Of a DNA stretch of 33,919 nt, positions 1-23,397 are shown piece after piece. Position 1 is the first letter of the stretch. The number at the start of each line of letters is the position of its first letter. The DNA comes from a virus. Its lineage: Duplodnaviria; Heunggongvirae; Uroviricota; Caudoviricetes. The position numbers and the translations under genes were made by a program. The stretch is taken from the IMG/VR virus record IMGVR_UViG_2579778797_000012. The stretch is one strand, 5' to 3'. The notes beneath the pieces are model-generated. The model made no database searches. It saw only the letters and a list, made by a program, of their open reading frames with translations, and was not told the origin of the DNA.

Positions 1-182
1 CGGGAGACTTTTTCGGAACGACTGCCGAAGTTCATCCGGCGGAGTTTATCCAGCTGCGCCTGCAGATGGTCTATTTCGCGCTCCCGGTTGCTCAGCTTTT
101 CCTGCAGGGCGTGGATCAGCGCTTCCTGTTCGGCCAGGCGCTGTTTCAGCAGGAAGATGTCGTCAGAAGAGATGTCGTTCAT
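1..182 (-). CDS. IS66-family transposase TnpC, N-terminal fragment (5' partial in window)
   Basis: Minus-strand ATG at 182-180 opens MNDISSDDIFLLKQRLAEQEALIHALQEKLSNREREIDHLQAQLDKLRRMNFG..., a recognisable IS66/ISEc8-type transposase N-terminus. The ORF runs off the window start. Confidence 0.75.
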   Translation of the reverse strand, partial: MNDISSDDIFLLKQRLAEQEALIHALQEKLSNREREIDHLQAQLDKLRRMNFGSRSEKVS

Positions 183-231
183 AAGCCCGTATTTTACCGG
201 GCTTATTCTGTGACAACCAGGATAAAGAGAT

Positions 232-579
232 TTACAGCATGGTCAGGGAGGTCAGCAGCCGCTTGGGCTGTCGCCAGTCGATACCTTCCAGCAGCATCGC
301 CAGCTGCGCCTGTGTAAGGAACACTTTGCCATCACGGGCTGACGGCCAGGCGAAGCGCCCACGCTCCAGCCGTTTGGTCAGGAGGCACAGTCCGTCACCG
401 GTGGACCACAGCAGTTTAACCTGACTGCCGCTGCGGCCCCGGAAGATAAAAACGTGACCTGACATCGGATCGTCTTTCAGCGCCGTCTGTACTTTCGCAG
501 CCAGGCCGTTGAAGCCATTTCTCATATCGGTGATACCGGCAACCAGCCAAATTTTGGTCCCGGAAGGTAACGGGATCAT
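232..579 (-). CDS. IS66-family accessory protein TnpB (Orf2)
   Basis: 115-aa ORF (MIPLPSGTKIWLVAGITDMRNGFNGLAAKVQ...) characteristic of IS66 Orf2. Its start overlaps the tnpA stop (576-579). Confidence 0.8.
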   Translation of the reverse strand: MIPLPSGTKIWLVAGITDMRNGFNGLAAKVQTALKDDPMSGHVFIFRGRSGSQVKLLWSTGDGLCLLTKRLERGRFAWPSARDGKVFLTQAQLAMLLEGIDWRQPKRLLTSLTML

Positions 580-977
580 CGCTTCAGTTCCTGTATCAGC
601 AGAGTCAGGAGCTTTTCGCTGACATTGCCATTGAAGCGGAGCGTCCCGTGCCGGAACGTTACCTCACAGCTGATACTGAGGGTTTTCGGGTCCTCTGCGA
701 GCGATTCTGGCTGTTCGGCAGCTGCATCGAGAGTCACAGGAAGTAGCTGGGGGCTCTCTGAAGAAGGTAATAGCAGCTTTCCCTCGCGCCATTGTTGTCG
801 CCATTTGAACAACAGATTGGCGTTAATGCCATTTTCAAGAGCAAGTTTTGAGATGGATATCCCGGGTTCACAGGAGGCAGCAACGAGCTGCTGTTTAAAT
901 TCGGGAGGATAATTAGGGCAGCCTTTTCGCCTGCCGGGAGTCACATTTTTCTGCATATCTGACACTTTGGTTCCCAC
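576..977 (-). CDS. IS66-family accessory protein TnpA (Orf1); true start may be an internal Met
   Basis: 133-aa ORF with a helix-turn-helix-like segment (ISKLALENGINANLLFKWRQQW), the first gene of the IS66 triad. Confidence 0.7.
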   Translation of the reverse strand: MGTKVSDMQKNVTPGRRKGCPNYPPEFKQQLVAASCEPGISISKLALENGINANLLFKWRQQWREGKLLLPSSESPQLLPVTLDAAAEQPESLAEDPKTLSISCEVTFRHGTLRFNGNVSEKLLTLLIQELKR

Positions 978-1044
978 TACTTATTTGGTGGACACCACTT
1001 TGTCTAATTCGTCAGATTCTGACCAGACGGTTCAGGCTGTACGC

Positions 1045-1452
1045 TTACACTGCTTCAGGAATTTTCCACGCATTTTTTGCCGGAACCACGGCATATTCAC
1101 TGAAACCACCGTCAGCGTGCACACCTAATACAGCCAGTGTCGTACAAACGTTCGGTTTACCTATAGAGCACGGATAGCAATGCCCACAGCTGACCACCGG
1201 ATCGACAGCAACACGTTCACCGACTCTGGCGCTTTCCACGCCTTCACCCACTGCATCAATGACGCCAAAGAATTCATGACCAATGACGCGCGGATATTTC
1301 GCAAAAGGATTATGCCCACGATAAATATGGCTATCTGAACCACAAATTCCGGCAAGTTTCACTTTTACTCGTACTTCACCCGCTGACGGGGTGGGTATTT
1401 CACGTTCGACAATCGCCAGTTGATTCGGTTTTTCAATTAATATGCTTTTCAT
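1045..1452 (-). pseudogene. rspB: rspB (starvation-sensing zinc-dependent dehydrogenase), 3'-truncated by the IS66-family element
   Basis: Translation MKSILIEKPNQLAIVEREIPTPSAGEVRVKVKLAGICGSDSHIYRGHNPF...KNAWKIPEAV matches the first ~135 residues of E. coli RspB (339 aa in K-12, from memory). The frame stops inside the IS terminus. Start taken at the internal Met (MKSIL). Confidence 0.8.
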
Positions 1453-1463
1453 TATCTTACTCC

Positions 1464-2677
1464 TTACCAGTTCCACAGCGTGCCATCTTCCAGACGTGCG
1501 ACTGGTAGATAAGCAGGTTCATAGGGATATTTCGCCGCCAGCTTTTCATCGAATTCGATACCAAGACCCGGTTTGTCTCCCGGATGCATATAGCCGTTAT
1601 CGAAAGTCCAGTTGTGCGGGAAGACTTCGAGCATTTGTTCGGAATAACCCATGTATTCCTGGACACCGAAATTGGGGACCCACAGATCAAAGTGCAGCGC
1701 CGCAGCCATGCAGACTGGTGACAAATCGGAAGGACCGTGTGAGCCAGTACGTACCTGATACAGCGAAGCAAAATCGGCAATCCGGCGCATACCGGTAATT
1801 CCGCCTGCATGGGTCAGCGTGGTGCGGATATAATCGATGAGTTGCTCTTCAATCAGTTGTTTGCAGTCCCAGATGCTGTTGAAGACTTCACCACTGCGAT
1901 GGGTGTGACGGTATGTTGGCGAATGAGACGGAAGCATTCCTGGTTTTCCGCAGGCGTCGGGTCTTCCATCCAGAACATGCGATAATCTTCAATGCTTTTA
2001 CCAAAGCGCGCCGCTTCAATAGGCGTTAAGCGATGGTGCAAGTCATGCAGCAGATGTTCATTAAAACCAAACTTGTTACGTACCGCGTCAAACAATTTCG
2101 GCATGAAATCGAGGTATTTCTCCGTCGACCACAGCTGCTCTTCCGGCCACTGTCCTTTGGTTGCGGGTTCATAAGCCAGACCTTTACCTTTCGACATGCC
2201 GTAGGTGGTTTTCATACCTGGGATTCCGCACTGCACGCGGATGGCTTTGAATCCCAGCTCCTGATGACGGGCATAATCATCCAGAGCTTCATCAATACTG
2301 TGACCGGTGGTATGGCAATAAACCATCACCCCTTCACGAGACGCGCCGCCGAGTAACTGGTAAAGCGGCATGTTGGCAGCTTTGGCTTTAATATCCCACA
2401 GCGCCATATCAACCGCTGAAATGGCCGACATCGTAACCGGACCGCGACGCCAGTAAGCACCTTTATAGAAAAACTGCCAGATATCTTCGATACGGTGCGC
2501 ATCGCGACCAATAAGCTGCGGACAAAGGTGATCCTGCAAATAAGAGGCCACGGAAAGCTCACGTCCATTGAGGGTGGCATCCCCAAGGCCCGTAATACCG
2601 TCCTCAGTGGTGATTTTTAATGTGACGAAATTACGCCCCGGACAGGTAACAAAAACTTCAGCCTTTACGATCTTCAT
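1464..2677 (-). pseudogene. rspA: rspA (mannonate/galactonate dehydratase-family enolase-superfamily protein) with an apparent 1-bp frameshift near 1890-1893
   Basis: Two overlapping minus-strand ORFs (1853..2710 and 1464..1937) together cover RspA ([30 protein letters not shown]... then ...[21 protein letters not shown]...[13 protein letters not shown]). The frame changes after ...TPIAV. The span is 1214 nt where 1215 is expected. Confidence 0.75.
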
Positions 2678-2882
2678 GTTCGATTCCTTGCATCGCTTGT
2701 CGTGATGCATGAAATCTACGCAACTGAGCCACTACCATACAAGTATGAAGATCGAAAAAAGCCGGAGTGATCACAAAAAAAGGCGTATATTTGCGCTGTG
2801 AATGGTTGACAAAAGATGAAATAGAATACCTTTTGTCAGCTGACACTTCCTCGTATCTTATTGATAAAATGGATTTATGTTC

Positions 2883-3209
2883 CTACGTGCGCCCCCAGCC
2901 CGCAACAATGATCAACATGCCGCAAAGCGCAATCAACGCACCCGTCCAGTCATAAAGAGTCAGTTTCACGCCATCCACAACGCGCAGCCACATCAACGCC
3001 GTGCAGACATAAACGCCACCATAAGCCGCGTAAACACGCCCACTCGCCGCAGGATGCAACGTTAACAACCAGACAAACAGCGCCAGTGAAATCCCCGCCG
3101 GAAGCAACAGCCAGATACTGGCGTTTCGTTTTAACCACAACCAGGGCAGAAAGCATCCAATAATTTCACACAGCGCAGTAGCAAAAAATAGTAACGTTGT
3201 TTTAATCAT
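2883..3209 (-). CDS. ynfA: YnfA, UPF0060-family inner-membrane protein
   Basis: [33 protein letters not shown]..., 108 aa from the internal Met. Hydrophobic four-helix pattern. Conserved K-12 neighbourhood (rspA-ynfA-ynfB-speG). Confidence 0.85.
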
Positions 3210-3343
3210 CTTTGTCACTTATTGACATCATGTATAGTTATAGGGCGACATAATATCATCAATATAAACACCCTCCTGGTACGTTTTGCGTTCGCAGTGG
3301 ATGGTGTAGAATCACCTTTAATCATTCATACAGGGAATGAATT

Positions 3344-3685
3344 ATGAAAATCACTCTCAGCAAACGAATCGGCCTGCTCGCTTTTCTGCTGCCTTGCGCA
3401 CTGGCATTGAGCACAACTGTTCATGCCGAAACTAACAAACTGGTGATTGAGTCTGGCGACAGTGCACAAAGCCGCCAGCACGCCGCTATGGAAAAAGAGC
3501 AATGGAATGACACGCGCAATCTGCGTCAGAAAGTGAATAAACGCACTGAAAAAGAGTGGGATAAAGCCGACGCCGCTTTTGATAACCGCGATAAATGTGA
3601 GCAAAGCGCCAACATCAATGCCTACTGGGAGCCCAATACTTTGCGCTGCCTGGACCGTCGAACTGGCCGCGTTATTACCCCCTAA
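3344..3685 (+). CDS. ynfB: YnfB, UPF0482-family secreted protein
   Basis: 113-aa ORF with signal peptide ([28 protein letters not shown]), matching K-12 YnfB. Confidence 0.85.
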
Positions 3686-3719
3686 CCTGTTATTGATTTA
3701 AGGAATGTAAGGACACGTT

Positions 3720-4280
3720 ATGCCAAGCGCCCACAGTGTTAAGCTACGCCCGCTGGAGCGTGAAGATTTACGCTATGTACATCAACTCGACAATAACGCC
3801 AGTGTGATGCGTTACTGGTTTGAGGAACCCTACGAAGCCTTTGTTGAACTCTCTGATCTGTATGATAAGCATATTCATGATCAGAGCGAACGGCGCTTTG
3901 TGGTGGAATGTGACGGCGAAAAAGCCGGTCTGGTGGAGCTGGTGGAAATTAACCATGTTCATCGCCGCGCAGAATTTCAGATAATTATCTCCCCGGAGTA
4001 TCAAGGGAAAGGTCTGGCAACCCGTGCCGCCAAATTAGCAATGGACTATGGCTTCACCGTTCTCAATCTCTATAAGCTGTATCTGATCGTTGATAAAGAG
4101 AATGAAAAAGCGATTCACATTTACCGCAAGCTTGGCTTTTCGGTTGAAGGTGAATTGATGCATGAGTTCTTTATTAATGGTCAATATCGTAATGCCATTC
4201 GCATGTGTATATTCCAGCATCAGTATCTGGCAGAGCACAAAACACCGGGTCAGACTCTCCTGAAGCCGACCGCACAATAG
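3720..4280 (+). CDS. speG: Spermidine N1-acetyltransferase SpeG (GNAT family)
   Basis: 186-aa ORF ([41 protein letters not shown]...) with a GNAT motif-A-like [18 protein letters not shown] segment. Confidence 0.9.
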
Positions 4281-4282
4281 CA

Positions 4283-4993
4283 TTAATAATAATCGATCGT
4301 ATTTTTGATGGTGTAAACCCGTTCGACGGCGGGTTTTACTCCTTCATCAACAATGATCAGCTGACAGTCCACCGGATTGGCGTGACTGTCATATTCACAG
4401 CTCTGTTTTACATTACCAACTCGTTGATTATTCAGTAAAGTAACCGCTGTGTAATCTAATTTTTTGATCGGGTCCGTTGATGGCGTGGCGCTGACAGATA
4501 ATGTTTTGTCGTTACTTTTCGTGGTTTTACCCAGTGGATAACCCTGATCATCATAGCGATATTCCATCTGCATTTGTTTGCTGCTGGCTTTAATCACGAA
4601 GCCATTATCATCGGTTTCCCAACTCACCCCGGCAGAAGGTAATTCTGCTAGCTGGCATTTTCCCTGTAAACGTACTCTCTTCTCCAGCGTCTCGGCATCA
4701 CGGTAATAATTGGCGTCCAGTACCAGAGCGACCACGGTATTATTTTCCAGATCCAGTAATTCGAGTGAATCAAAACAGCCTTCTTGCGACAAAGTCCCAG
4801 AAACACGTTTCGTCACTTCACCTTGCTCATCCATTAATGTCTGAGTGAAATCTTTTACCGGACCACGCAGCGGATCAAAATCGAATTCATTAGAGAAACT
4901 GGCCATCTCAGGGGTAAATGAAAGTGTTACCTCTGTGCGGTCACATCCTGTGAGGAATATCGCGAGTAAGCATGGTAGTAATTTGTATTTCAC
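4283..4993 (-). CDS. ynfC: YnfC, UPF0257-family lipoprotein
   Basis: Lipobox LTGC after a signal peptide (KYKLLPCLLAIFLTGCDRTEV). Start assigned to the GTG giving a 236-aa product as in K-12. The ATG 36 nt upstream is an alternative. Confidence 0.8.
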   Translation of the reverse strand: MKYKLLPCLLAIFLTGCDRTEVTLSFTPEMASFSNEFDFDPLRGPVKDFTQTLMDEQGEVTKRVSGTLSQEGCFDSLELLDLENNTVVALVLDANYYRDAETLEKRVRLQGKCQLAELPSAGVSWETDDNGFVIKASSKQMQMEYRYDDQGYPLGKTTKSNDKTLSVSATPSTDPIKKLDYTAVTLLNNQRVGNVKQSCEYDSHANPVDCQLIIVDEGVKPAVERVYTIKNTIDYY

Positions 4994-5100
4994 AACAGTC
5001 ACCAGAGAGTAGAGATGATTCTCAATCATAGTAGCAAATACAGTACTTTACACGTTAAATGCTATGCTTAAAGAAGTTATCTTCGCGTAAGGAGCTTATG

Positions 5101-5406
5101 ATGAAACTCTCAACCTGCTGTGCCGCGCTTCTGCTCGCCCTCGCCTCACCCGCAGTACTCGCCGCGCCGGGATCCTGTGAGCGCATACAGAGCGATATAT
5201 CACAGCGCATTATCAATAATGGCGTACCCGAAAGCAGCTTCACATTAAGTATTGTACCCAATGACCAGGTTGATCAGCCTGATTCCCAGGTCGTCGGGCA
5301 TTGTGCTAATGATACGCATAAAATTCTCTACACCCGCACCACCAGCGGTAACGTCTCTGCTCCCGCGCAGTCTACCCAGGATGGCGCGCCTGCCGAACCG
5401 CAGTAA
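5101..5406 (+). CDS. ynfD: YnfD, DUF1161-family secreted protein
   Basis: MKLSTCCAALLLALASPAVLAAPGSCERIQ..., 101 aa. AGGAG ribosome-binding site at 5089-5093. Confidence 0.8.
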   Translation: MKLSTCCAALLLALASPAVLAAPGSCERIQSDISQRIINNGVPESSFTLSIVPNDQVDQPDSQVVGHCANDTHKILYTRTTSGNVSAPAQSTQDGAPAEPQ

Positions 5407-5604
5407 TACATTATCGACTGAACGCCGGATACGACACATCCGGCGATTTGAACATACAACATAATCCCACCTTATTACTCATACCCTTCTATTGATATGG
5501 ATTAATAATTCTTAACCCAAAATGGGTAGACTCCCTCTATTGTTAGCGCGCTAAATATTCAATATATAAACTTTTATATAACGATAAAGAACAGGGAGTG
5601 AGTT

Positions 5605-8031
5605 ATGTCCAAAAATGAACGAATGGTGGGCATCAGCCGCAGAACACTCGTTAAATCTACCGCGATAGGTTCTCTGGCGCTGGCTGCAGGCGGTTTTTCT
5701 TTGCCGTTTACCCTGCGCAGTGCAGCAGCAGCGGTACAACAGGCCCGCGAAAAAGTGGTCTGGGGTGCCTGTTCCGTCAACTGTGGTAGCCGCTGTGCAC
5801 TTCGTCTACATGTTAAAGATAATGAAGTGACCTGGGTGGAAACTGACAATACCGGCAGCGATGAGTACGGCAACCATCAGGTACGCGCCTGTTTGCGCGG
5901 TCGCTCCATCCGCCGGCGTATTAATCATCCCGATCGCTTGAATTACCCAATGAAACGCGTGGGTAAACGCGGTGAAGGCAAATTCGAACGGATTAGCTGG
6001 GATGAAGCCCTGGATACTATCGCCAGTAGCCTGAAAAAAACCGTCGAACAATATGGCAATGAGGCTGTATATATTCAGTACTCTTCGGGGATTGTTGGCG
6101 GCAATATGACCCGCTCTTCGCCATCAGCCTCGGCGGTCAAACGCCTGATGAACTGCTACGGCGGTTCACTCAATCAGTATGGCTCCTACAGCACCGCGCA
6201 AATTTCCTGTGCCATGCCCTACACCTACGGCAGTAATGATGGCAACAGCACCACGGATATTGAAAACAGCAAGCTGGTCGTGATGTTTGGTAACAACCCG
6301 GCAGAAACCCGCATGAGCGGCGGTGGCATCACTTATCTTCTTGAAAAAGCGCGCGAGAAATCGAACGCCAAAATGATTGTTATCGATCCGCGATATACCG
6401 ATACGGCTGCTGGTCGTGAAGATGAATGGCTTCCTATTCGCCCGGGCACCGATGCCGCGCTGGTTGCGGGGATTGCCTGGGTATTGATTAACGAAAATCT
6501 CGTTGATCAACCTTTTCTCGATAAATACTGCGTCGGCTATGACGAAAAAACCTTACCCGCAGATGCACCCAAAAATGGTCACTATAAAGCCTATATTCTT
6601 GGTGAAGGTGACGATAAAACAGCGAAAACGCCGCAGTGGGCTTCGCAAATTACCGGTATCCCGGAGGACCGTATCATCAAACTGGCGCGTGAAATTGGCA
6701 CAGCAAAACCCGCTTATATCTGCCAGGGCTGGGGGCCACAACGCCAGGCAAACGGCGAACTGACTGCACGCGCTATTGCTATGTTACCTATTTTGACGGG
6801 CAATGTCGGCATCAGCGGCGGAAATAGTGGCGCGCGTGAATCGACCTATACCATTACCATAGAACGCCTGCCGGTGCTGGATAATCCGGTCAAAACGTCA
6901 ATCTCCTGCTTCAGCTGGACAGATGCTATCGATCATGGTCCGCAAATGACGGCAATCCGCGACGGCGTCCGCGGCAAAGATAAACTGGATGTGCCCATTA
7001 AGTTCATCTGGAACTACGCGGGAAATACCCTCGTTAATCAGCATTCTGACATCAACAAAACGCATGAAATTCTGCAGGACGAATCGAAATGCGAAATGAT
7101 TGTGGTCATCGAAAACTTTATGACCTCATCGGCAAAATATGCCGACATTCTGCTGCCAGACCTGATGACCGTTGAGCAGGAAGATATTATTCCTAACGAC
7201 TACGCCGGTAACATGGGATATCTCATTTTCCTCCAGCCTGTCACCAGCGAAAAATTCGAACGCAAACCGATTTACTGGATCCTGAGTGAAGTCGCGAAAC
7301 GTCTTGGACCTGACGTCTATCAAAAGTTCACAGAAGGTCGCACGCAGGAACAATGGTTACAACATCTGTACGCCAAAATGCTTGCCAAAGATCCGGCGTT
7401 ACCGTCTTACGACGAACTGAAAAAAATGGGTATCTATAAGCGTAAAGATCCCAATGGCCATTTTGTCGCCTACAAAGCATTTCGTGACGACCCCGAGGCA
7501 AATCCACTTAAAACGCCTTCCGGTAAGATTGAAATTTATTCCAGCAGGCTGGCGGAAATTGCCCGTACCTGGGAACTGGAAAAAGATGAAGTGATAAGCC
7601 CATTGCCAGTTTATGCCTCAACCTTTGAAGGCTGGAACTCCCCTGAACGTAGAACCTTCCCACTGCAACTGTTTGGTTTCCATTACAAATCCCGTACTCA
7701 CTCGACCTACGGCAATATTGATCTCCTGAAGGCTGCCTGCCGTCAGGAGGTGTGGATCAACCCTATAGATGCGCAGAAACGTGGGATTGCCAACGGCGAT
7801 ATGGTGCGGGTGTTTAACCATCGTGGCGAAGTTCGGCTACCAGCCAAAGTAACACCACGTATTCTCCCTGGAGTTAGCGCTATGGGCCAGGGAGCCTGGC
7901 ACGAGGCCAATATGTCTGGCGATAAAATCGACCATGGCGGCTGTGTGAATACGCTAACCACTCTGCGCCCTTCACCACTGGCGAAGGGAAACCCGCAGCA
8001 CACTAATCTGGTCGAGATCGAAAAAATATAA
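5605..8031 (+). CDS. ynfE: YnfE, Tat-exported DMSO-reductase-family molybdoenzyme catalytic subunit (putative selenate reductase)
   Basis: 808-aa ORF with a twin-arginine signal (SRRTLVKSTAIGSLALAAG), a Cys-rich N-terminal cluster (CSVNCGSRC) and full-length similarity to DmsA-type subunits. Confidence 0.9.
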   Translation: MSKNERMVGISRRTLVKSTAIGSLALAAGGFSLPFTLRSAAAAVQQAREKVVWGACSVNCGSRCALRLHVKDNEVTWVETDNTGSDEYGNHQVRACLRGRSIRRRINHPDRLNYPMKRVGKRGEGKFERISWDEALDTIASSLKKTVEQYGNEAVYIQYSSGIVGGNMTRSSPSASAVKRLMNCYGGSLNQYGSYSTAQISCAMPYTYGSNDGNSTTDIENSKLVVMFGNNPAETRMSGGGITYLLEKAREKSNAKMIVIDPRYTDTAAGREDEWLPIRPGTDAALVAGIAWVLINENLVDQPFLDKYCVGYDEKTLPADAPKNGHYKAYILGEGDDKTAKTPQWASQITGIPEDRIIKLAREIGTAKPAYICQGWGPQRQANGELTARAIAMLPILTGNVGISGGNSGARESTYTITIERLPVLDNPVKTSISCFSWTDAIDHGPQMTAIRDGVRGKDKLDVPIKFIWNYAGNTLVNQHSDINKTHEILQDESKCEMIVVIENFMTSSAKYADILLPDLMTVEQEDIIPNDYAGNMGYLIFLQPVTSEKFERKPIYWILSEVAKRLGPDVYQKFTEGRTQEQWLQHLYAKMLAKDPALPSYDELKKMGIYKRKDPNGHFVAYKAFRDDPEANPLKTPSGKIEIYSSRLAEIARTWELEKDEVISPLPVYASTFEGWNSPERRTFPLQLFGFHYKSRTHSTYGNIDLLKAACRQEVWINPIDAQKRGIANGDMVRVFNHRGEVRLPAKVTPRILPGVSAMGQGAWHEANMSGDKIDHGGCVNTLTTLRPSPLAKGNPQHTNLVEIEKI

Positions 8032-8091
8032 CCCACGACAACCATAAATTCTGGCATGACATTTTGTTTGAAAAGCAATAAGTGAGTAATG

Positions 8092-10515
8092 ATGAAAATC
8101 CATACCACAGAGGCGCTCATGAAGGCTGAAATCAGCCGTAGAAGTCTGATGAAAACCTCCGCACTTGGCAGTCTTGCGCTGGCAAGCAGTGCTTTCACTC
8201 TGCCATTTTCCCAAATGGTCCGGGCGGCAGAGGCTCCGGTAGAAGAGAAAGCGGTCTGGAGTTCCTGCACCGTTAACTGCGGGAGCCGCTGTCTGTTACG
8301 TTTGCATGTGAAAGATGACACCGTGTACTGGGTGGAGTCTGATACGACAGGTGACGACGTCTACGGTAATCATCAGGTTCGAGCGTGTTTACGCGGGCGC
8401 TCTATCCGCCGACGGATGAATCATCCTGATAGGTTGAAATATCCCATGAAGCGCGTCGGCAAGCGCGGTGAAGGTAAATTTGAACGGATAAGTTGGGACG
8501 AAGCCCTGGATACCATCAGTGATAATCTTCGGCGGATCCTGAAAGATTACGGCAATGAGGCTGTACATGTCCTGTACGGAACAGGCGTAGATGGCGGAAA
8601 CATCACCAACTCAAACGTCCCGTACCGTCTGATGAACTCTTGCGGTGGTTTTCTCAGTCGCTATGGCAGCTACAGTACCGCACAGATCAGTGCCGCAATG
8701 AGTTATATGTTCGGTGCCAATGATGGCAACAGCCCGGATGATATCGCCAATACGAAACTGGTCGTTATGTTCGGAAATAACCCGGCAGAAACGCGGATGA
8801 GCGGCGGTGGTGTCACTTACTACGTCGAGCAAGCCCGCGAACGTTCAAACGCACGCATGATCGTCATCGATCCACGTTATAACGACACTGCTGCCGGGCG
8901 TGAAGATGAATGGCTGCCCATTCGCCCTGGCACCGATGGCGCACTGGCCTGTGCGATTGCCTGGGTACTGATTACTGAAAACATGGTCGATCAGCCATTT
9001 CTCGACAAATATTGTGTTGGTTACGATGAAAAAACGCTGCCCGCCAACGCACCACGTAACGCGCATTATAAAGCCTATATTCTGGGCGAAGGGCCTGACG
9101 GCATAGCTAAAACGCCGGAATGGGCAGCAAAAATCACCAGCATCCCGGCAGAAAAAATTATCCAGTTGGCACGAGAGATCGGTTCAGCAAAACCTGCTTA
9201 TATTTGTCAGGGTTGGGGGCCACAACGACATTCCAACGGCGAGCAAACATCCCGCGCTATTGCCATGCTTTCCGTTCTCACCGGCAACGTCGGCATAAAC
9301 GGCGGCAACTCAGGCGTACGCGAAGGTAGCTGGGATCTGGGGGTAGAATGGTTCCCGATGCTCGAGAATCCTGTTAAAACGCAGATTTCCGTCTTTACAT
9401 GGACAGATGCCATCGACCATGGTACGGAAATGACCGCGACCCGTGATGGTGTTCGTGGAAAAGAAAAACTGGATGTCCCCATCAAGTTTTTATGGTGCTA
9501 CGCCAGTAACACATTGATCAATCAACATGGCGACATCAATCACACCCATGAGGTGCTTCAGGATGACAGCAAGTGCGAGATGATTGTTGGCATTGACCAC
9601 TTCATGACGGCCTCGGCTAAGTATTGCGATATCCTGTTGCCCGACCTGATGCCAACAGAGCAAGAAGACCTTATCTCTCATGAATCTGCAGGGAATATGG
9701 GCTATGTGATCCTCGCCCAACCCGCAACCTCAGCAAAATTTGAACGCAAACCCATCTACTGGATGCTGAGTGAAGTCGCCAAACGCTTAGGACCAGACGT
9801 TTATCAAACCTTTACTGAAGGTCGCAGTCAGCATGAATGGATCAAATATCTCCATGCGAAAACGAAGGAACGTAACCCTGAGATGCCCGACTACGAGGAG
9901 ATGAAAACGACCGGGATCTTTAAGAAAAAATGCCCGGAAGAACACTACGTCGCTTTCCGCGCATTCCGTGAAGATCCACAGGCAAACCCGTTGAAAACAC
10001 CTTCGGGGAAAATCGAAATTTATTCTGAACGACTGGCGAAGATTGCAGATACCTGGGAATTGAAAAAAGATGAAATTATTCATCCCCTTCCTGCGTATAC
10101 CCCAGGTTTTGATGGCTGGGACGATCCCCTGCGGAAAACCTATCCACTGCAGTTAACGGGCTTCCATTACAAAGCGCGTACCCACTCCAGCTACGGCAAT
10201 ATTGATGTGTTACAGCAGGCCTGCCCACAAGAGGTGTGGATCAACCCCATTGATGCTCAGGCACGCGGTATCCGTCATGGCGATACCGTGCGGGTATTTA
10301 ACAATAATGGAGAAATGCTGATTGCCGCAAAAGTGACTCCGCGTATTCTGCCTGGCGTTACCGCCATCGGGCAAGGTGCGTGGCTTAAAGCGGATATGTT
10401 TGGTGACCGGGTCGATCACGGCGGCAGTATCAATATTCTGACCTCTCACCGCCCTTCACCGCTGGCAAAGGGAAACCCGTCGCACAGCAATCTTGTCCAG
10501 ATCGAAAAGGTTTAA
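8092..10515 (+). CDS. ynfF: YnfF, Tat-exported DMSO-reductase-family molybdoenzyme catalytic subunit (paralog of ynfE)
   Basis: 807 aa from the second Met. Twin-arginine signal (SRRSLMKTSALGSLALA), CTVNCGSRC cluster, collinear with YnfE throughout. Confidence 0.9.
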   Translation: MKIHTTEALMKAEISRRSLMKTSALGSLALASSAFTLPFSQMVRAAEAPVEEKAVWSSCTVNCGSRCLLRLHVKDDTVYWVESDTTGDDVYGNHQVRACLRGRSIRRRMNHPDRLKYPMKRVGKRGEGKFERISWDEALDTISDNLRRILKDYGNEAVHVLYGTGVDGGNITNSNVPYRLMNSCGGFLSRYGSYSTAQISAAMSYMFGANDGNSPDDIANTKLVVMFGNNPAETRMSGGGVTYYVEQARERSNARMIVIDPRYNDTAAGREDEWLPIRPGTDGALACAIAWVLITENMVDQPFLDKYCVGYDEKTLPANAPRNAHYKAYILGEGPDGIAKTPEWAAKITSIPAEKIIQLAREIGSAKPAYICQGWGPQRHSNGEQTSRAIAMLSVLTGNVGINGGNSGVREGSWDLGVEWFPMLENPVKTQISVFTWTDAIDHGTEMTATRDGVRGKEKLDVPIKFLWCYASNTLINQHGDINHTHEVLQDDSKCEMIVGIDHFMTASAKYCDILLPDLMPTEQEDLISHESAGNMGYVILAQPATSAKFERKPIYWMLSEVAKRLGPDVYQTFTEGRSQHEWIKYLHAKTKERNPEMPDYEEMKTTGIFKKKCPEEHYVAFRAFREDPQANPLKTPSGKIEIYSERLAKIADTWELKKDEIIHPLPAYTPGFDGWDDPLRKTYPLQLTGFHYKARTHSSYGNIDVLQQACPQEVWINPIDAQARGIRHGDTVRVFNNNGEMLIAAKVTPRILPGVTAIGQGAWLKADMFGDRVDHGGSINILTSHRPSPLAKGNPSHSNLVQIEKV

Positions 10516-10525
10516 GGAGTAGCCC

Positions 10526-10639
10526 ATGACCACACAATATGGATTTTTTATCGATTCCAGCCGCTGTACTGGCTGTAAAACCTGCGAACTGGCGTGCAAA
10601 GATTTTAAAGTTGGTTACGTATCGTTTAAAATCAATTAG
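10526..10639 (+). pseudogene. ynfG: ynfG (4Fe-4S ferredoxin-type subunit), 5' fragment only; similarity ends about 10609
   Basis: MTTQYGFFIDSSRCTGCKTCELACKDFK matches the YnfG/DmsB N-terminus. The frame then reads VGYVSFKIN-stop instead of the expected DLGPEVSFRRIYEY..., and no remainder of ynfG is present downstream in the window. Confidence 0.85.
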
Positions 10640-10683
10640 ATAGCCCGTCATTTCTGCGCTCACACGTCCCAACATTGAAAAAC

Positions 10684-15033: not shown

Positions 15034-18000
15034 TTAATCCACTCCCACTTTTTTGTTGTACTCGCGGTTAAAGCGATCCACGGCAACCTTCATATCCCGC
15101 TCTACCGATTTCACCATCGCCGCCTGCTGCGCCAGACTGAGAGAACTGTCGGCATAAATGGCATCGCGCTGTTTGCGCAAATCCTTCAGTCTCTTCCGGG
15201 TATCCTGCATAAGCCCGTTCATCAACAATTTTCCGTTGTTCTCGTCAATGAACGCCGTTCTTTCTGCACCGGTCAGACTCTTCAGCTCTGCGTGATACTG
15301 CGCAACCTCTGTCATCCGGTCGTACATCTTCTGCTGGTCTGCATACGGCATCACCTCACCCGAAATTTTCCCCAGGAAGGGCACCTGCTGCTCCGGTATA
15401 TCAATACCGTTCAGCGATTTCACCGCCGCATCTGTGGTTTTGGAAATGAAGCGCCCTGTCCCTCCGGAGATATAGTCAATCCAGAATTTCAGCGATTCCG
15501 GTGTGATATCCACCGCGCCGGGACGATACTGGCTGCCACCTGAGAACGCATTCAGCCAGGATGCAAACGCCTTGTACGCCTCAGGCGTTGAACGTCTGCC
15601 CAGCTGGCTGTCCGGTTTCGGTGTGCCAAATGGCATGTTCTCCTGGTAAATCTGCGCCCCCATGAAGTTTTCATTCATGGCAAGGTTCGCAAACGGACGC
15701 AGAATGGTCGGCGCTGCATTTTTCAGCAATGCCCCGGACAGTGTTTCCGACGTTTCACTGCCCACAGGACTGAATGCCCCCAGGATACCACCGACAACAT
15801 TACCGGCAGCACGTGAAGCAGTCAGGTCGCCCGCTGCCACACCTTCAGCAGTATGCCCGAGCAGGAAGAAAACGTTGTACCCGTAAGGCAGAGGAATACT
15901 CCAGTACTCTCCGGCCTTGCCCCCGAACACCGATTTCATAATGACGAGGTTACGCTCTTTCACATGAGACGGCACCTTGTCATACCAGTTAACCCCGTCA
16001 TCATCCTCCCCCGCAACACTGCGGTTAAGCGAGCCAAGCAGATAACCCGCTCCCACAGCTGCAAGCGCGATTTTCTGCGGTACATTGAGATTCTTCCAGC
16101 GAAGGCGCTCCGGTAACGGCCCGTCGCCATTAAGATGTCCGAGCGTTCTCACCAGGTTTGCGGTCCCCTGAATGCTGGCGTTGGCAAACATATACAGCGA
16201 GTTCATCAGCGCTCCCTGCTCACCACGACGGTTAAAGTTCACCGTCATGTTTTTGGCAAGAGATGCCGCCTGCTGGCGTGACAAACCGGCATCACGGGCG
16301 TGTTTATAGGCAGAAAGACGCAGAGCGTTTTCAACCGCGCCGTTGGCATCCTCGACCAGGTTCAGGAACGAATGCCATGCACCGATACTCTGGCCTTTCC
16401 ATCCTCCCTTCGCCAGCGATACAAGGCGATCCATTTCCTTCTGCTGGCCTTCAAGGTCACCCATGTTAAACCAGCCGGTTTTACCTCCGTCCTCAACAAA
16501 CTCTTTCCACACCTTCTGCCACTGCGCACCGTTGCCCGTGAGGGTTTTACCACGCAGACTGGCGTATACGGCAGACATGGCAGACCGGCTGTCTTTCACC
16601 ACAGCCAGGGCGGATAAGTTATCCAGCCCTTTCAGTTTACCGTCGCTCCTTCCCTGCTCCGCCTTCAGGTTCATCACCGCCGTCTGCACGTCACGGATGA
16701 AGTTACTGACCAGGAATTCCGGGTTATACGACGTGTTCACCGTTGCCAGGAAGCGGTTAACTTTCCCCAGCGTGCGGATTACGGCGTTACTGGTTTCCGG
16801 TCCCATATTCTTCATCGCACGCATCAGGCGCGGATCATGGAGTTTGATGTAGTACGTTTTGCCGTTCTTTTTGGTGGTGAAGTACCGGTCTGCCATCATT
16901 GCCATCGGTACAGGACGTTCGACAACTTCGTGACGGGTTTCACCGGTTTCCGGAACAACACGCTCTGCAATCGCACGCATGGTGTCCGGTCGCTCATTGG
17001 TGAATACCTGCCAGTAATCCTTGTCTGGATTATCCTGTACCAGTTTCAGGAAGGCGTTACCTACTTCATTTTTGCGATTGCGGATCAGCGATTCGCTCAA
17101 GTCCTGTATCGCCTGAGTGGACGGAGACTGTGCGCGGGATGCACGCCCCATGGCCTGCCTGCTTTCACGTCCGCCGATAGTGAAGCCTTTACCTGTACGG
17201 GGCAGTGACACCACACCGTCAACATCCTGGCCTTTCAGAGGAACGTAGTAACGGTAGGCGTTCTGCCAGGCATCCACCACACCGCTCTCTTCCAGTCCGG
17301 CCTCACGGATAAGCTCACGGCGACGGGCCAGCATATCGTCAACAATCCCTGCCAGACGGTCATACTGTGCCTGTTTGCCACTGTTACGCACACGCTGCAT
17401 GATTTCCGCCGCTTCCGCGTTGGTCATCCCCGAACCGCCGTCCGGCATTTTCGGGTTGATTTTCGCGATATGCGCGTTACGTTCCGGCGCGTGACGGGCG
17501 TAGAGGTACTCATCCAGATCGGCCTGCGCAATTTTGTAGTCCGCCAGTAATTTAGCCAGCGGCTGAACATAGCGCTCCTTCATCACGTTCAGGTCGTTTT
17601 CCGCCTTCCCGTGGAAGAGTTCTTCCGCCATATAAGCGTTGTTACTGTCGTCTATTTTTCCGCCAGTTTTACGGATATTCTCCTGAACAGCTTTCAGCAC
17701 CTGGAATTTATCCTGCATCTGGCGCACAAAACGCGATGCAATTGTCTCTTCCGGTGTCAGACTGCTGGTACGGGAGTAATGCGGCCCCTTGCGAATATCT
17801 TCAGGATAGAGTATTTTATCCGCAGAGCCGCGATAAGAATGTTCCCCTTTGGGCAATTGGAGTCCTCTGTGCAGAAGGTTATCGCGGCTTAATTTTTCTC
17901 TCCGGTACAACGTTAACCCGGTCATTTCCATACTCTTCAGTTTTTTTCCATTTTCTGTACCGTAAACAGAAGCTACCTTGTTGATTTCCAGACGCGACCG

Positions 18001-21000
18001 GACAGCCTTCATGTGTACCGCTGACACCACCGGATCACCATTTTTATCCACGGCATCAAGCAGCATCACAACCGCATTTCTTTCTGTCGCTGAGTGGTAA
18101 ATTGCATCCGGATCGTGCATCAGTTCCGGTAGTCTCTCGATAACATCCATCGGCACCACATGTTTCACACCATTGGTGGCCTTACGCACAGTGTCGCGGG
18201 AGATAACCAGCGGCAAATCTGGTGCGCCAAGGTGACGCAATACCGGCGGCGTACGCCCGATGTTTACCGTTAAATCCGTTGAGCGCAGAGACTTCATCAT
18301 TCTGGCAAGGTCATCACGATAACGCTCGCCCTCACCTTCCGGCACTTTGAACGGATCAGGCTTACCGCTACGGGAGTACTGAGACGATGCGCCAGCGCCA
18401 TCCTCACGCGGCGTGTAACCTTCCCGCACACGCTGGCCTAACGTGCGAATAGTTTCGCGAACAAGTCTGATATCGTTCAGCTCTGTCGGCTTCAGTAACC
18501 CCGTGCGACGCAGTACCCCTTTGACCAGGGCAACAACACGCTCCCACGCCGCCACAAATTTATTCGGCTGTTTCTCCGCCATATGTGCCAGAAATTCACC
18601 CGCCTGCACTTCCGGTGATTCCTTACCATAAGACGCATCAACCTTACGCCAGGCTTCACGGATGGTGGCGTTATCACTGTCACGGGTTTTCAGCACGGTC
18701 TTAATAATCGTCTGATATTCCGCTGGCGTGACTACATGCTCCATTGCATGGTGGATAATCTCGTGACGCAGCTTCTCGCGAACGGTCCGCCCGTCAGGAA
18801 TGTTATCCGCCACCAGGACAATTTCACGTTTATCCGGACGATAGAACGCATGCCCCCTGCCGTAACCGTCGAACGATTCACCCGCCAGCGCTTCAGCCTC
18901 TTTCTGTGACTTCACCACGCGGACCTTCAGGTCACTGTCCTTAATGCCACTCATCACGCCACGGGCAACCGCTTCAACCTGCGGGACCGGGCTGCCTTTG
19001 GCTTCCGCACTGCGGTTAACATCCGAAATGAGATTGCCTTCAGGTGTGCGGGTCACGCCCTTACGGGAATAAAACGCAACGCCCTTGTCCGTCTCACGGG
19101 TTTTCAGCGTACTGAACAGGTGATCGAATGCATCACGAATACCGCCATCCAGTTCCGCATTCGTCGGATAAGCCCAGGTGTTATCTGTGTTGTGCTCAGG
19201 TGCCTTACGGATATTGACCAGATAATCATTCTCCACGCCAGCCGTACGCGCTTTATCCTGAACATAACGCTCAAAGGCACGCGCCGCCATTTCAACATCC
19301 GTTGACCAGTACGGTTTTGAGCGCACCTCATCGAGAAGCGCTGAACGACGCGGCATGTCACTGCTGTTGATCGCTTTCATCACGCCTTTAAACGCGTCGT
19401 AAACCTCCTGACGTACCGGATATTCCGCATCAACATATCTGCCGTCTTTAAATACGCGCCCGGCACGCTGTGCTTCCGTCATATAGTCGCCACCTGACGT
19501 GATCTTCCCGTCAGTGGAAACATCATAACGACCAAAATAATTATCCAGTGAATGGAACCATTCGTGGGCCAGCGCCCCCGGTCCGTTACCTTTTGTCAGG
19601 TTGATTGCCACCTCACCCGGCTCATAGTGTGCCGCCGCCTTACCCTTACCACGGGCACCAAAAGCAAGCCCAAGACGACCGTTCAGAGAAAGCGCTTTTG
19701 TCGGCACGTTCAGCACATCAGCCAGGTCATGCAGCGAGTCATAAGCCCGGTTCAAATCAGCCTGACGACGCGGACCTTCCACATAATTACCAAACTGCAC
19801 ACCACGAAAACCAAACGCATCACTGAACTGCTCCGGCGAAACATCCCCCTTGCGGCGTTCTGGTCCGGTACGATCGCGGTTGGTGGCGTTACGCTGCTCC
19901 TCACGCGAAATCTCCCGCATCTCCTTCACATGACGAACAAGCTCATCACGATGTGAATCAATGTACTTACGCGCATCACTGGCTGACTTAAAGCCACCTC
20001 TCACCCGCATTTTGTTTTTGCCATAAGCGATAAAAATATCGCCACTGCGGGTATTCCGGTAAACGTCAAAGCGGATTTTGTCATCCGGTGACGGTGCCGT
20101 TTTTTCATCTCCTTTCGCCTGTGACTTTTCCTCCAGCTCTGCAAACCAGACTTTCGCCTTTGTCAGTAATTCATCCCTGCTTTCCGAGAAAAAGAGGTTA
20201 GTCCCCTTATTGTCCTTATTGCGCAGTGAATAAAGTTTCTGTGGCGGATCGTAACGCTTCCCTCCTGCCGCCTGATACACACCCGATACCACCCGATAAG
20301 CAGAAGCCTTGTCCATCTGTGAGGGTGGCAGAGTGCGTAACAGTTGCCAGGTATCCGCGTAACGGGAGGGCATTCTGCCTTCCATCCATTCTGCGAGGCG
20401 TTTCGCGCTGACCGTTCCGTTCAGCATTTCCGATACACTGTGTCGTACTTTTTTTACGCTCTCCCCCCAGCCAGCCGTATTGTGTTTCGTCTTCGCCGGA
20501 ATATCGCTACGATACAGCGCTATCATTGCCAGGGTGTCAGCATCAGCCCCTTCGCTCGCCAGTTTTGCGTAGTCCGGTTTCGGGAACAGTTTGCTCAGCG
20601 GCTGCGTGGCATAATCCCTGTCTTCCAGCGTTTTACCCAGTGTTTCAGCAAGCTGTGCATAACGGTGTTTTGCCGCGCCCTTAATTTCTTCACCAAAGTC
20701 TTCAATTTTCGCACCACGCGCCTGCTGGTGAGTGCTCGGTTTATCTACCGGCATCGGCACCTCAGTATCCGGAACATCGGTTATGGTCTGGCGATTATCC
20801 CCGGTCTGTCTGCGTGCTTCTGCCTGCTGTGCCAGTTCCGGAAGGGAGTCACGAACCATACGAGGGAGTGATTCAGGCTGTGGCATATCAACCCCACGCT
20901 GACTTTCAGGTGCAGGAAGTCCTTCACGCACTGGTGCTGTGGCGTTCTGCTCATCCGGTGACGGCAGACCACGACGAACCGGTTCGCCCTCCAGTATTTC

Positions 21001-23397
21001 CCCCCGGCGACCAGCGGCATTTTCCGGTGCCTGCGCACGTCCTTTCTGGAAACTCTGGCCCTTCACCTCACCGGTTGTGGTAAAACGACCACCACGTCCG
21101 GCCTGATTTTCATCCGGCGTACGCGCCACTTCTCCCGGTAACGGATATCCCTGTCCGGGATGAATATCGCCGGGAGCGGGAAGGCGTGGACGCTCAGTTA
21201 ACTCCTGAGCTGTCGGACCGGCATCACCTTCAGCCATCTGTGAACGCACCAGCTCTTCCGCCGTCGGCACGTTGCCACGGGCAAGGCGGGCCTGCACTTC
21301 TGTATCATCTCCCGTAAAACCCCGGAATCGCGGGTCACGCATGAACGCTGGCTGCTCCATCGGATCAGCATCAGCAATACGCTCTCCGTCAGCCAGGGTG
21401 TTAATGGTTTCCGTTGCCACATCTTCAGAGAACGCAGGATTATCCATTTCAACGGCATACTGATTCTCACCTTTCTTCACTACGGACGGTTTCAGGCCGG
21501 TGGCGCTGGCATTGCGAAAAACATCGCTACCCATGGCGCTTTTCTCATCCGTGAAATAACGGTTGTCCGGACGCACCTTTTCAATGCGTTCTGCTGGTCT
21601 GGACGCACCACTCCCGTTAATTTCAATACGAACTTCATCCGGATCGCGGAACCGCACCGTCGGGTAAATACTCCCGTCGCCATCATCCGCATTTTCCGGC
21701 TGTGGCTGTGCCTCCGGTCTGGCCTCCTGCTGAGGGCGAAGCACATCACGGATAGCCTGTAACTGCTGCTCTTCAGTATCAGTACGCCCTTCCTTCAGGC
21801 TGAGTTTTCGGTATTCCTCAAGCAGTTCAGGGCGCGGCTTCGCCTTCAGCTCATCCATTACCGCCTGTCGCTTCGCCTGTTCATCCAGTTCATTCAACAG
21901 CTGGCTGGCGGCTTCCCGGCGATGAACGGCAGACGTGTCTCCCTCATGTGCCATATCCGCATCAGCATACTGTTCCAGAAGCTGCTCGCGATTCATCCCC
22001 TGCATGGATTCACGATGCTGTGCCACCGGATCAACCGGTTCGGGTTGCGGGGCTGCGTCGTCCTGCTGCACGGTTTCAGCATCACGCATGGCTGCTTCTT
22101 CTGCGGCCTGACGTCTGCCACGATATCCGGCAACCGCACCGAATGGAGCCCCCATCGCAGCACCAAAGGCTGCACCTTCGATCGTTGCGTCAGCCACGCC
22201 CTCCCACGGTGACACATCCATTCCGGCGGTCTCACGCAATGCCGTGTTTTCCTGATAGCGCGAATAGGCGTTCTGTGCCCCGTTAATTACGCCCTGTTCC
22301 GTGGCATTTCTGACAATGCCGCTTTTAACGGTCTTCGCTGTGCCTCGTGTCACCAGATTAAACAGTTGTGCGTCACCCAGTTTTGCCGCCATGGCATTCA
22401 CAGCCAGCAATTCAGGATCGGTTGCCAGCTGCGCGCGCACCTCATCGGCAACACGCTCTTTTGCCAGGTCCATTTTCTGGCGATCAGTAAGCTGTGCGTG
22501 CTGTGGATCTGCATCAATTGACAAAAACGTCTGCTGAAATTTCGGTGACTGCGCCAGCTCAGCGTAATCCGCATTAAGAACAGCATCTGCTGCCGACATT
22601 GCACTCTGCCCCTGTGCACTGGCTGTGGAATGGGTGATCAGGCCCGCATGGAAGAAATCCGTCATTTTTTTATCGACAGCTTCTGCTGCCAGTGCCGTGG
22701 CTCTTTCCGGCTGCACTCCTGCCGCGATGTATTTTTTCTCCAGCCCGGCGGTCAGCGTTCTTTTCAGTGCGACCTGTCCCACCTTTCTAACCACACCGCC
22801 AGCAACCAGATCAGGTACAAGCGCACCAATCAGGTTTACACCCTTCGTCAGCAAGACCGCAGAATCATCATAGCCTTCACTCATTGGCGTGTTCAGCGCA
22901 CGAACAGCACCCGGCGACATCTGATCTGTCAGCCATTCATCCGAGGCTTTGGCACCATCACTGACTGCCTTACCGGTTGCTTTCAGACCTTCACCGACAG
23001 TATCAGTGACCGCGTTTTTACCTGTTCCATCGGGAATGTTTTTAATCGCATCTCCAACAGAAGGTGGCGCGCCCAGTTCCTTTTGCGTGGAGGAAGGCGG
23101 CATGTAAACATCCGTCATGAAAGACGACAACCCGGCAAGCGTTTTTACAGGATTATTTACAAATCCATCACCGAGTCCACGGACCATCTCCCCTGTTCCC
23201 CGGACGGACTGGGCGAAACCTTTACCCATTGTTGGCAATACATCACCGAGGCTGAACGATGTGCTGTGATCAATGGCATTCTGCGGGTTGCTGAAAAAAT
23301 CCTGCCAGTAATTTTCTCCCGGCTGCTTAATGTTCAGGCTGCTGCGGTTCTGGTTACCCAATTGCGCTTCAGGGCGCTGCTCATCTGAAAAAGCCAT
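15034..23397 (-). CDS. Giant multidomain protein (2,787 aa) with two HExxH metallopeptidase-like motifs; putative phage polyvalent or effector protein
   Basis: Single uninterrupted ORF with GGAG 8 nt upstream of the ATG. HEWFH at nt 19552-19566 (about residues 1278-1282) and HEIIHH at nt 18748-18765 (about residues 1545-1550). Low-complexity A/Q/E/P-rich N-terminal third. Function inferred only. Confidence 0.6.
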   Translation of the reverse strand: MAFSDEQRPEAQLGNQNRSSLNIKQPGENYWQDFFSNPQNAIDHSTSFSLGDVLPTMGKGFAQSVRGTGEMVRGLGDGFVNNPVKTLAGLSSFMTDVYMPPSSTQKELGAPPSVGDAIKNIPDGTGKNAVTDTVGEGLKATGKAVSDGAKASDEWLTDQMSPGAVRALNTPMSEGYDDSAVLLTKGVNLIGALVPDLVAGGVVRKVGQVALKRTLTAGLEKKYIAAGVQPERATALAAEAVDKKMTDFFHAGLITHSTASAQGQSAMSAADAVLNADYAELAQSPKFQQTFLSIDADPQHAQLTDRQKMDLAKERVADEVRAQLATDPELLAVNAMAAKLGDAQLFNLVTRGTAKTVKSGIVRNATEQGVINGAQNAYSRYQENTALRETAGMDVSPWEGVADATIEGAAFGAAMGAPFGAVAGYRGRRQAAEEAAMRDAETVQQDDAAPQPEPVDPVAQHRESMQGMNREQLLEQYADADMAHEGDTSAVHRREAASQLLNELDEQAKRQAVMDELKAKPRPELLEEYRKLSLKEGRTDTEEQQLQAIRDVLRPQQEARPEAQPQPENADDGDGSIYPTVRFRDPDEVRIEINGSGASRPAERIEKVRPDNRYFTDEKSAMGSDVFRNASATGLKPSVVKKGENQYAVEMDNPAFSEDVATETINTLADGERIADADPMEQPAFMRDPRFRGFTGDDTEVQARLARGNVPTAEELVRSQMAEGDAGPTAQELTERPRLPAPGDIHPGQGYPLPGEVARTPDENQAGRGGRFTTTGEVKGQSFQKGRAQAPENAAGRRGEILEGEPVRRGLPSPDEQNATAPVREGLPAPESQRGVDMPQPESLPRMVRDSLPELAQQAEARRQTGDNRQTITDVPDTEVPMPVDKPSTHQQARGAKIEDFGEEIKGAAKHRYAQLAETLGKTLEDRDYATQPLSKLFPKPDYAKLASEGADADTLAMIALYRSDIPAKTKHNTAGWGESVKKVRHSVSEMLNGTVSAKRLAEWMEGRMPSRYADTWQLLRTLPPSQMDKASAYRVVSGVYQAAGGKRYDPPQKLYSLRNKDNKGTNLFFSESRDELLTKAKVWFAELEEKSQAKGDEKTAPSPDDKIRFDVYRNTRSGDIFIAYGKNKMRVRGGFKSASDARKYIDSHRDELVRHVKEMREISREEQRNATNRDRTGPERRKGDVSPEQFSDAFGFRGVQFGNYVEGPRRQADLNRAYDSLHDLADVLNVPTKALSLNGRLGLAFGARGKGKAAAHYEPGEVAINLTKGNGPGALAHEWFHSLDNYFGRYDVSTDGKITSGGDYMTEAQRAGRVFKDGRYVDAEYPVRQEVYDAFKGVMKAINSSDMPRRSALLDEVRSKPYWSTDVEMAARAFERYVQDKARTAGVENDYLVNIRKAPEHNTDNTWAYPTNAELDGGIRDAFDHLFSTLKTRETDKGVAFYSRKGVTRTPEGNLISDVNRSAEAKGSPVPQVEAVARGVMSGIKDSDLKVRVVKSQKEAEALAGESFDGYGRGHAFYRPDKREIVLVADNIPDGRTVREKLRHEIIHHAMEHVVTPAEYQTIIKTVLKTRDSDNATIREAWRKVDASYGKESPEVQAGEFLAHMAEKQPNKFVAAWERVVALVKGVLRRTGLLKPTELNDIRLVRETIRTLGQRVREGYTPREDGAGASSQYSRSGKPDPFKVPEGEGERYRDDLARMMKSLRSTDLTVNIGRTPPVLRHLGAPDLPLVISRDTVRKATNGVKHVVPMDVIERLPELMHDPDAIYHSATERNAVVMLLDAVDKNGDPVVSAVHMKAVRSRLEINKVASVYGTENGKKLKSMEMTGLTLYRREKLSRDNLLHRGLQLPKGEHSYRGSADKILYPEDIRKGPHYSRTSSLTPEETIASRFVRQMQDKFQVLKAVQENIRKTGGKIDDSNNAYMAEELFHGKAENDLNVMKERYVQPLAKLLADYKIAQADLDEYLYARHAPERNAHIAKINPKMPDGGSGMTNAEAAEIMQRVRNSGKQAQYDRLAGIVDDMLARRRELIREAGLEESGVVDAWQNAYRYYVPLKGQDVDGVVSLPRTGKGFTIGGRESRQAMGRASRAQSPSTQAIQDLSESLIRNRKNEVGNAFLKLVQDNPDKDYWQVFTNERPDTMRAIAERVVPETGETRHEVVERPVPMAMMADRYFTTKKNGKTYYIKLHDPRLMRAMKNMGPETSNAVIRTLGKVNRFLATVNTSYNPEFLVSNFIRDVQTAVMNLKAEQGRSDGKLKGLDNLSALAVVKDSRSAMSAVYASLRGKTLTGNGAQWQKVWKEFVEDGGKTGWFNMGDLEGQQKEMDRLVSLAKGGWKGQSIGAWHSFLNLVEDANGAVENALRLSAYKHARDAGLSRQQAASLAKNMTVNFNRRGEQGALMNSLYMFANASIQGTANLVRTLGHLNGDGPLPERLRWKNLNVPQKIALAAVGAGYLLGSLNRSVAGEDDDGVNWYDKVPSHVKERNLVIMKSVFGGKAGEYWSIPLPYGYNVFFLLGHTAEGVAAGDLTASRAAGNVVGGILGAFSPVGSETSETLSGALLKNAAPTILRPFANLAMNENFMGAQIYQENMPFGTPKPDSQLGRRSTPEAYKAFASWLNAFSGGSQYRPGAVDITPESLKFWIDYISGGTGRFISKTTDAAVKSLNGIDIPEQQVPFLGKISGEVMPYADQQKMYDRMTEVAQYHAELKSLTGAERTAFIDENNGKLLMNGLMQDTRKRLKDLRKQRDAIYADSSLSLAQQAAMVKSVERDMKVAVDRFNREYNKKVGVD

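Follow-up and report, generated by a model that had tools for sequence, protein, structure and literature searches.

The window analysed here corresponds to contig JJLO01000115.1 (assembly GCA_000627155.1) over its full 33,919 bp; the contig comes from a gut isolate that the depositor named Escherichia coli 1-250-04_S4_C1. NCBI taxonomy contains seven isolates from the same subject, which include the sister colony 1-250-04_S4_C2 and also S1_C1 to C3, S3_C1 and S3_C2; our literature search found no paper that names strain 1-250-04. The genes follow each other in the order IS66 element, truncated rspB, rspA, ynfA, ynfB, speG, ynfC, ynfD, ynfE, ynfF, truncated ynfG and a prophage-like region. The features of the IS66 element and of the rspAB operon are as follows:

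1-1048, minus strand: left 1,048 bp of a 2,442-bp IS66-family element; the contig breaks inside the IS
1-183, minus strand: 5′ end of tnpC (first 61 codons), within the IS
232-579, minus strand: tnpB (NF033819, 120 bits; cut-off 50)
576-977, minus strand: tnpA (NF047595, 97.3 bits; cut-off 74)
ending at 1048, minus strand: IS terminal repeat GTAAGCGTACAGCC, at the junction with rspB
1049-1056, minus strand: left copy of the target-site duplication, GAAGCAGT (rspB nt 397-404); the same 8 bp lie past the other IS end
1045-1452, minus strand: truncated rspB, nt 1-404 running from 1452 down to 1049; 135 aa versus the normal 339
1464-2677, minus strand: rspA pseudogene (D-mannonate dehydratase-type, enolase superfamily), 1,214 nt versus 1,215
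1853-1855, minus strand: premature stop in the shifted rspA frame, 12 codons past the deletion; product of 274 aa
1891-1892, minus strand: 1-bp deletion, CC versus CCC in all references; the GGG of codon 263 (Gly), right before Glu264, is reduced to GG on the gene strand
2707-2746, minus strand: rspA promoter/operator, with the start site at 2707, the RspR box at 2737-2746 and T>C at 2730

The closest complete genome is that of PK8277, from which window positions 1049-10600 differ at 2 of 9,552 nt, namely a missing C at 1891 and a substitution at 2730. Further along the contig, a prophage-like element that extends from approximately 10527-10640 to position 33919 interrupts ynfG, which encodes the iron-sulfur subunit in the ynfEFGH selenate reductase operon, after about its first 28 codons. 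Besides antirepressor and tail-fibre genes, this element contains a PAPS reductase/IbrB-like pair and a 2,787-aa ORF (15034-23397), annotated in relatives as LPD5/LPD38 domain. At least 63 complete genomes match at least 80% of window positions 1049-25000, a stretch that includes the ynfG junction.

The left end of the window has the layout of an IS66-family element. Its tnpA, tnpB and tnpC genes are co-oriented, and the C-terminal 260 aa of tnpC, with the Pfam domain DDE_Tnp_IS66 of the DDE transposase, lie on a second stretch from the same assembly (L017, contig JJLO01000113.1). The ends are inverted repeats of the GTAAGCG type, GTAAGCGTACAGCC on the left and GTAAGCGTGCAGCA on the right, and an 8-bp duplication flanks both of them. 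Over its left 1,048 bp the element is 100% identical to complete 2,442-bp copies in the chromosome of E. coli cS76a and in plasmid pMTY14664_IncFII, and its right 869 bp (L017 1-869) are 99.1-99.2% identical to these same full-length copies. The matches fit a single element of about 2,442 bp, of which about 525 bp would be unassembled. Compared with named elements it is a mosaic: the left part shows 98.7% identity to ISEc8 (the copy in JP538) and 92% to ISEc22, and the right part 99.9% to ISEc22 and 85.7% to ISEc8. The presence of two different elements, one ISEc8-like on the left and one ISEc22-like on the right, was considered and rejected because complete 2,442-bp copies elsewhere carry both parts.

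According to the initial annotation rspB stops after about residue 135, exactly at the terminus of the IS66-family element, and both this end point and the gene coordinate of 1045 proved correct. The minus-strand ORF at 1045-1476 matches NF007489 (Zn-dependent oxidoreductase) over profile positions 1-135 of 339 only, with 283.5 bits and thus below the cut-off of 376, and the IS ends at window position 1048. Read across the junction, the gene continues as CCTGAAGCAGT followed directly by GTAAGCGTACAGCC; it is collinear with intact rspB through nt 404/405, and IS sequence occupies the position from there. The IS end completes codon 135 of rspB and supplies the TAA stop of the stub (1045-1047), which lies inside the IS terminal repeat. 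The GroES-like and nucleotide-binding domains of RspB (about 339 aa; PRK10083, medium-chain dehydrogenase/reductase family) are therefore not joined in a single polypeptide. To our knowledge, no substrate has been established for RspB.

The exact 135-aa stub has been deposited twice, as EZJ40607.1 and EZJ55789.1, from S4_C1 and S4_C2. The junction at rspB nt 404/405 was absent from all 5,426 complete E. coli genomes that we searched. A look-up of the stub returned many contigs from unrelated samples, and a wide spread of the junction was considered on this basis; it was rejected, as these matches are partial gene calls. Loci L004 and L006-L012 end at GCAGTG(G) and are free of IS sequence, and the junction occurs only in the window and in L005, a Logan re-assembly of run SRR1186797.

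The rest of rspB, for which the region past the window start had been proposed as the place to look, is present in the same assembly, on contig JJLO01000113.1 behind the second IS end. Here the C-terminus of the IS66 transposase precedes the junction, which reads GCTGCACGCTTAC, GAAGCAGT and GGCCGATCAATATG in succession. The copy of GAAGCAGT at L017 870-877 adjoins the IS end, and rspB resumes there with nt 405-1020; in all, nt 397-1020 on this contig show 100% identity to rspB of PK8277. This 3′ fragment consists of 205 codons and holds the nucleotide-binding part of the protein (Pfam ADH_zinc_N). A C-terminal fragment of 205 aa, beginning at the GTG of codon 135, had been predicted before it was found, by modelling a simple insertion with an 8-bp duplication like that of ISEc8 in JP538 rspB (duplication GGAAAAAG). 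The predicted protein was then found, under accessions EZJ40685.1 and EZJ55871.1, in S4_C1 and S4_C2. The perfect 8-bp duplication of GAAGCAGT at both IS ends indicates simple transposition, in which no rspB sequence was lost.

Directly downstream of rspB on the same stretch, a Qin-like prophage that encodes an integrase and homologues of DicB and YdfE interrupts the MFS transporter gene ydfJ after codon 31 (L017 1550-2961). This split is consistent with a cluster that may already have been under relaxed constraint.

For rspA, the initial annotation described a switch of reading frame after TPIAV and a span of 1,214 instead of 1,215 nt, attributed to one base missing from a C/G run at about 1890-1893. 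Alignment to the reference alleles of both genes bore out the IS junction in rspB as well as a single-base gap in rspA, the latter in the CC at 1891-1892. Both lesions are read directly against orthologous DNA and require no model of chance. The references read TTCACCCACTG and the window TTCACCACTG, and this is the sole gap in the alignments to JP538 and PK8277; against JP538, five substitutions accompany it. The reference protein contains TPIAVGEVFNS, and the rspA of the window leaves the frame after TPIAV, so that 262 native residues are followed by 12 foreign ones. This shifted product is carried by the ORF at 1853-2710, and in the deposited assembly rspA is called as two proteins of 274 aa and 108 aa.

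Profile matches divide at the same point, one frame covering positions 1-262 of NCBIfam NF011654 and the other 263-404. The two pieces together still span the whole dehydratase model, which indicates that the decay is recent. Neither piece reaches the cut-off of 550 for full-length NF043051 (474.7 bits for the N-terminal and 250.7 bits for the C-terminal piece), and for the broader NF011654 only the N-terminal piece exceeds the cut-off (523.1 versus 430). With the missing base added, the restored RspA has 404 aa, is identical to the PK8277 allele and matches PDB 4IL2 ‘Starvation sensing protein rspA’ end to end with E = 1.7e-289. Judged by its sequence, the gene at 1464-2677 is rspA by descent and not an intact member of the ManD family.

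For a ManD enzyme of the enolase superfamily one expects, besides the C-terminal strands of the barrel, three acidic residues that bind metal where barrel strands 3-5 end. In the window, residues 263-404 of RspA are out of frame, including Glu264 of TPIAVGE, which is presumably the third metal ligand; a literature search for the metal-ligand residues of ManD returned nothing relevant. A different rspA frameshift was seen in an unrelated sample (L011 1517, Logan ERR8007805), in which a 1-bp deletion at nt 530 with substitutions nearby splits the gene into calls of 216 aa and 192 aa. Both a real mutation and an assembly error are possible in that sample.

Transcription of both rspA and rspB proceeds from an RspR-repressed promoter, with the rspA start site 30 bp upstream of the ATG and an RspR box of the form ATACnnGTAT upstream of rspA (PMC8249747). 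The start site maps to window position 2707, and the box is present as ATACAAGTAT at 2737-2746. A promoter scan found nothing on the rspA strand, and the published start site was used instead. The T>C substitution at 2730 corresponds to position -23, is located 7 nt from the RspR box and probably falls inside the 31-bp footprint published for RspR. No other substitution separates the 9.55 kb from PK8277, and T is found at this position in each of the 11 other loci for which a check was possible. Within the operon rspA comes first, and 11 nt separate it from rspB. Since the IS in the downstream gene would not silence rspA, the frameshift represents a separate second hit.

Taken together, our results are best explained by strain-private pseudogenisation of rspAB through two independent, ordinary mutations, an IS insertion in rspB and a 1-bp deletion in rspA (probability about 0.9). 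According to this model, a 2.44-kb IS66-family element would have transposed between nt 404 and 405 of rspB, duplicated GAAGCAGT and split the gene. The 5′ piece would then encode a 135-aa stub with the N-terminal GroES-like catalytic domain only, and the 3′ piece a 205-codon fragment of the nucleotide-binding domain that would have neither a promoter nor a start signal of its own. In rspA, one G would have been lost from the GGG in codon 263, shifting the frame before Glu264 and ending it 12 codons on, so that the last 142 residues, the rest of the barrel domain, would not be made. The second hit may have come about through relaxed selection. Both lesions were found only together, in S4_C1 and S4_C2. 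The claim that rspAB is doubly inactivated therefore stands: both lesions lie where they had been placed, and each alone should abolish its product. From the truncations, loss of both enzyme activities is to be expected. An IS66-family insertion with an 8-bp duplication and a single-base frameshift are already known routes to pseudogenes, and what we describe is ordinary gene decay.

Complete E. coli genomes contain IS66-family elements at five further positions in rspB: nt 520 in O103 ML775, nt 563 in the O121 group, nt 584 in 2014C-3011 and cattle strains, nt 604 in JP538, and approximately nt 970 in APEC_AN-25. Three of these five insertions are simple and have 8-bp duplications. An apparent orientation bias, with all rspB insertions sharing one orientation, was rejected because the query could join hits in that orientation only.

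The recurrence of such insertions in other lineages bears on the question of whether loss or deregulation of rspAB was selected in this strain instead of being neutral. The IS, the frameshift and the T>C change at -23 all fall into one 2.4-kb operon, and the two point differences from PK8277 in 9.55 kb both affect rspA or its promoter. The C allele at 2730 is rare, occurring in 3 of the 5,323 complete E. coli genomes in which this region is present, and the dosage of rspAB is reported to affect stationary-phase physiology and protein production (PMC13034041). However, three events are a very small post hoc sample, and the two point changes would both fall into about 1.4 of the 9.55 kb by chance in about 2% of cases, a rough and uncorrected estimate for a region chosen afterwards. 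Moreover, neither of these exact lesions was seen to have recurred independently, the annotation gives an intact rspA in every other strain with an IS in rspB, and an operon that is already broken gathers further hits neutrally. We therefore regard selection as unlikely. Slightly more doubtful still is the narrower proposal that the lesions are adaptive, as three private changes that arose in one child’s gut in a clone otherwise near-identical to PK8277 over the region. If true, it would, together with the repeated IS66 hits in rspB, suggest that some host settings select against rspAB activity, possibly by way of the reported effect of rspAB on entry into stationary phase.

The initial annotation had left open whether the rspA deletion reflects gene decay or a sequencing error. 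If it were a homopolymer miscall or an assembly artefact, rspA would be intact in the living strain and only rspB inactivated. In the references the site is a short homopolymer, CCC, the assembly is a draft from 2014, and the evidence consists of assemblies and not of raw reads, so that a systematic platform error common to both libraries is possible. Yet the run has merely 3 bases, and the same deletion is present in the Logan re-assembly of SRR1186797 (L005/L014), which was assembled independently. In addition, colonies S4_C1 and S4_C2, which were sequenced separately, have the identical 274-aa frameshift product among their deposits, and the remainder of the 9.55-kb backbone is one substitution away from PK8277, which indicates high consensus quality. 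The deletion was found in none of the 5,050 complete E. coli genomes (of 5,426) that hold the corresponding 81-bp region; the best identity is 98.8%, so that every one of them has the third base. A random read or assembly error thus appears very unlikely, and intact rspA in the living strain is highly improbable. As far as assemblies can tell, the question is largely answered in favour of a real mutation, given the two colonies and the independent re-assembly.

Equally remote is a larger rearrangement, in which recombination between IS66 copies after the insertion inverted or moved a segment and left the rspB halves no longer adjacent: although both contigs terminate inside the IS with about 525 bp missing between them, related elements are multicopy (median of 3 places per genome) and O121 RM8352 and 2014C-3011 have a rearranged far side of the IS in rspB, the same 8-bp duplication occurs here at both junctions with rspB resuming at exactly the next base, and the contig numbers are neighbouring and the protein accessions close (EZJ40607 and EZJ40685); contiguity is proved neither by the junctions nor by the numbering.

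With both genes read as products of ordinary decay, rspA and rspB should be marked as pseudogenes and not as the four protein-coding genes of the deposited assembly. The strain is probably unable to run the sugar-acid pathway of the rspR-ydfI-ydfJ-rspBA cluster. The case also illustrates that public data can be sufficient, with no new sequencing, to resolve both a frameshift in a draft genome and a gene that seemingly ends where its contig stops. Beyond correct annotation, the finding is of little importance.

Finally, we compared the locus with known systems. In E. coli K-12 the Qin prophage is located in ydfJ (PMC8249747), and 1-250-04_S4_C1 has the same arrangement, with a Qin-like prophage, directly downstream of rspB; however, rspA and rspB are intact in K-12 and both lost here. 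The restored protein resembles E. coli RspA (PDB 4IL2, D-mannonate dehydratase subgroup), whereas the frame actually encoded breaks at codon 263. Like ISEc8/ISEc22-type insertions in E. coli genes, the element is 2,442 bp long, with the gene order tnpA-tnpB-tnpC and GTAAGCG repeats, and is flanked by an 8-bp duplication; it differs from them by its mosaic make-up and by its site in rspB, absent from the 5,426 complete genomes searched. JP538 also carries a closely related 2,442-bp ISEc8 copy with an 8-bp duplication in rspB, but at a different site.
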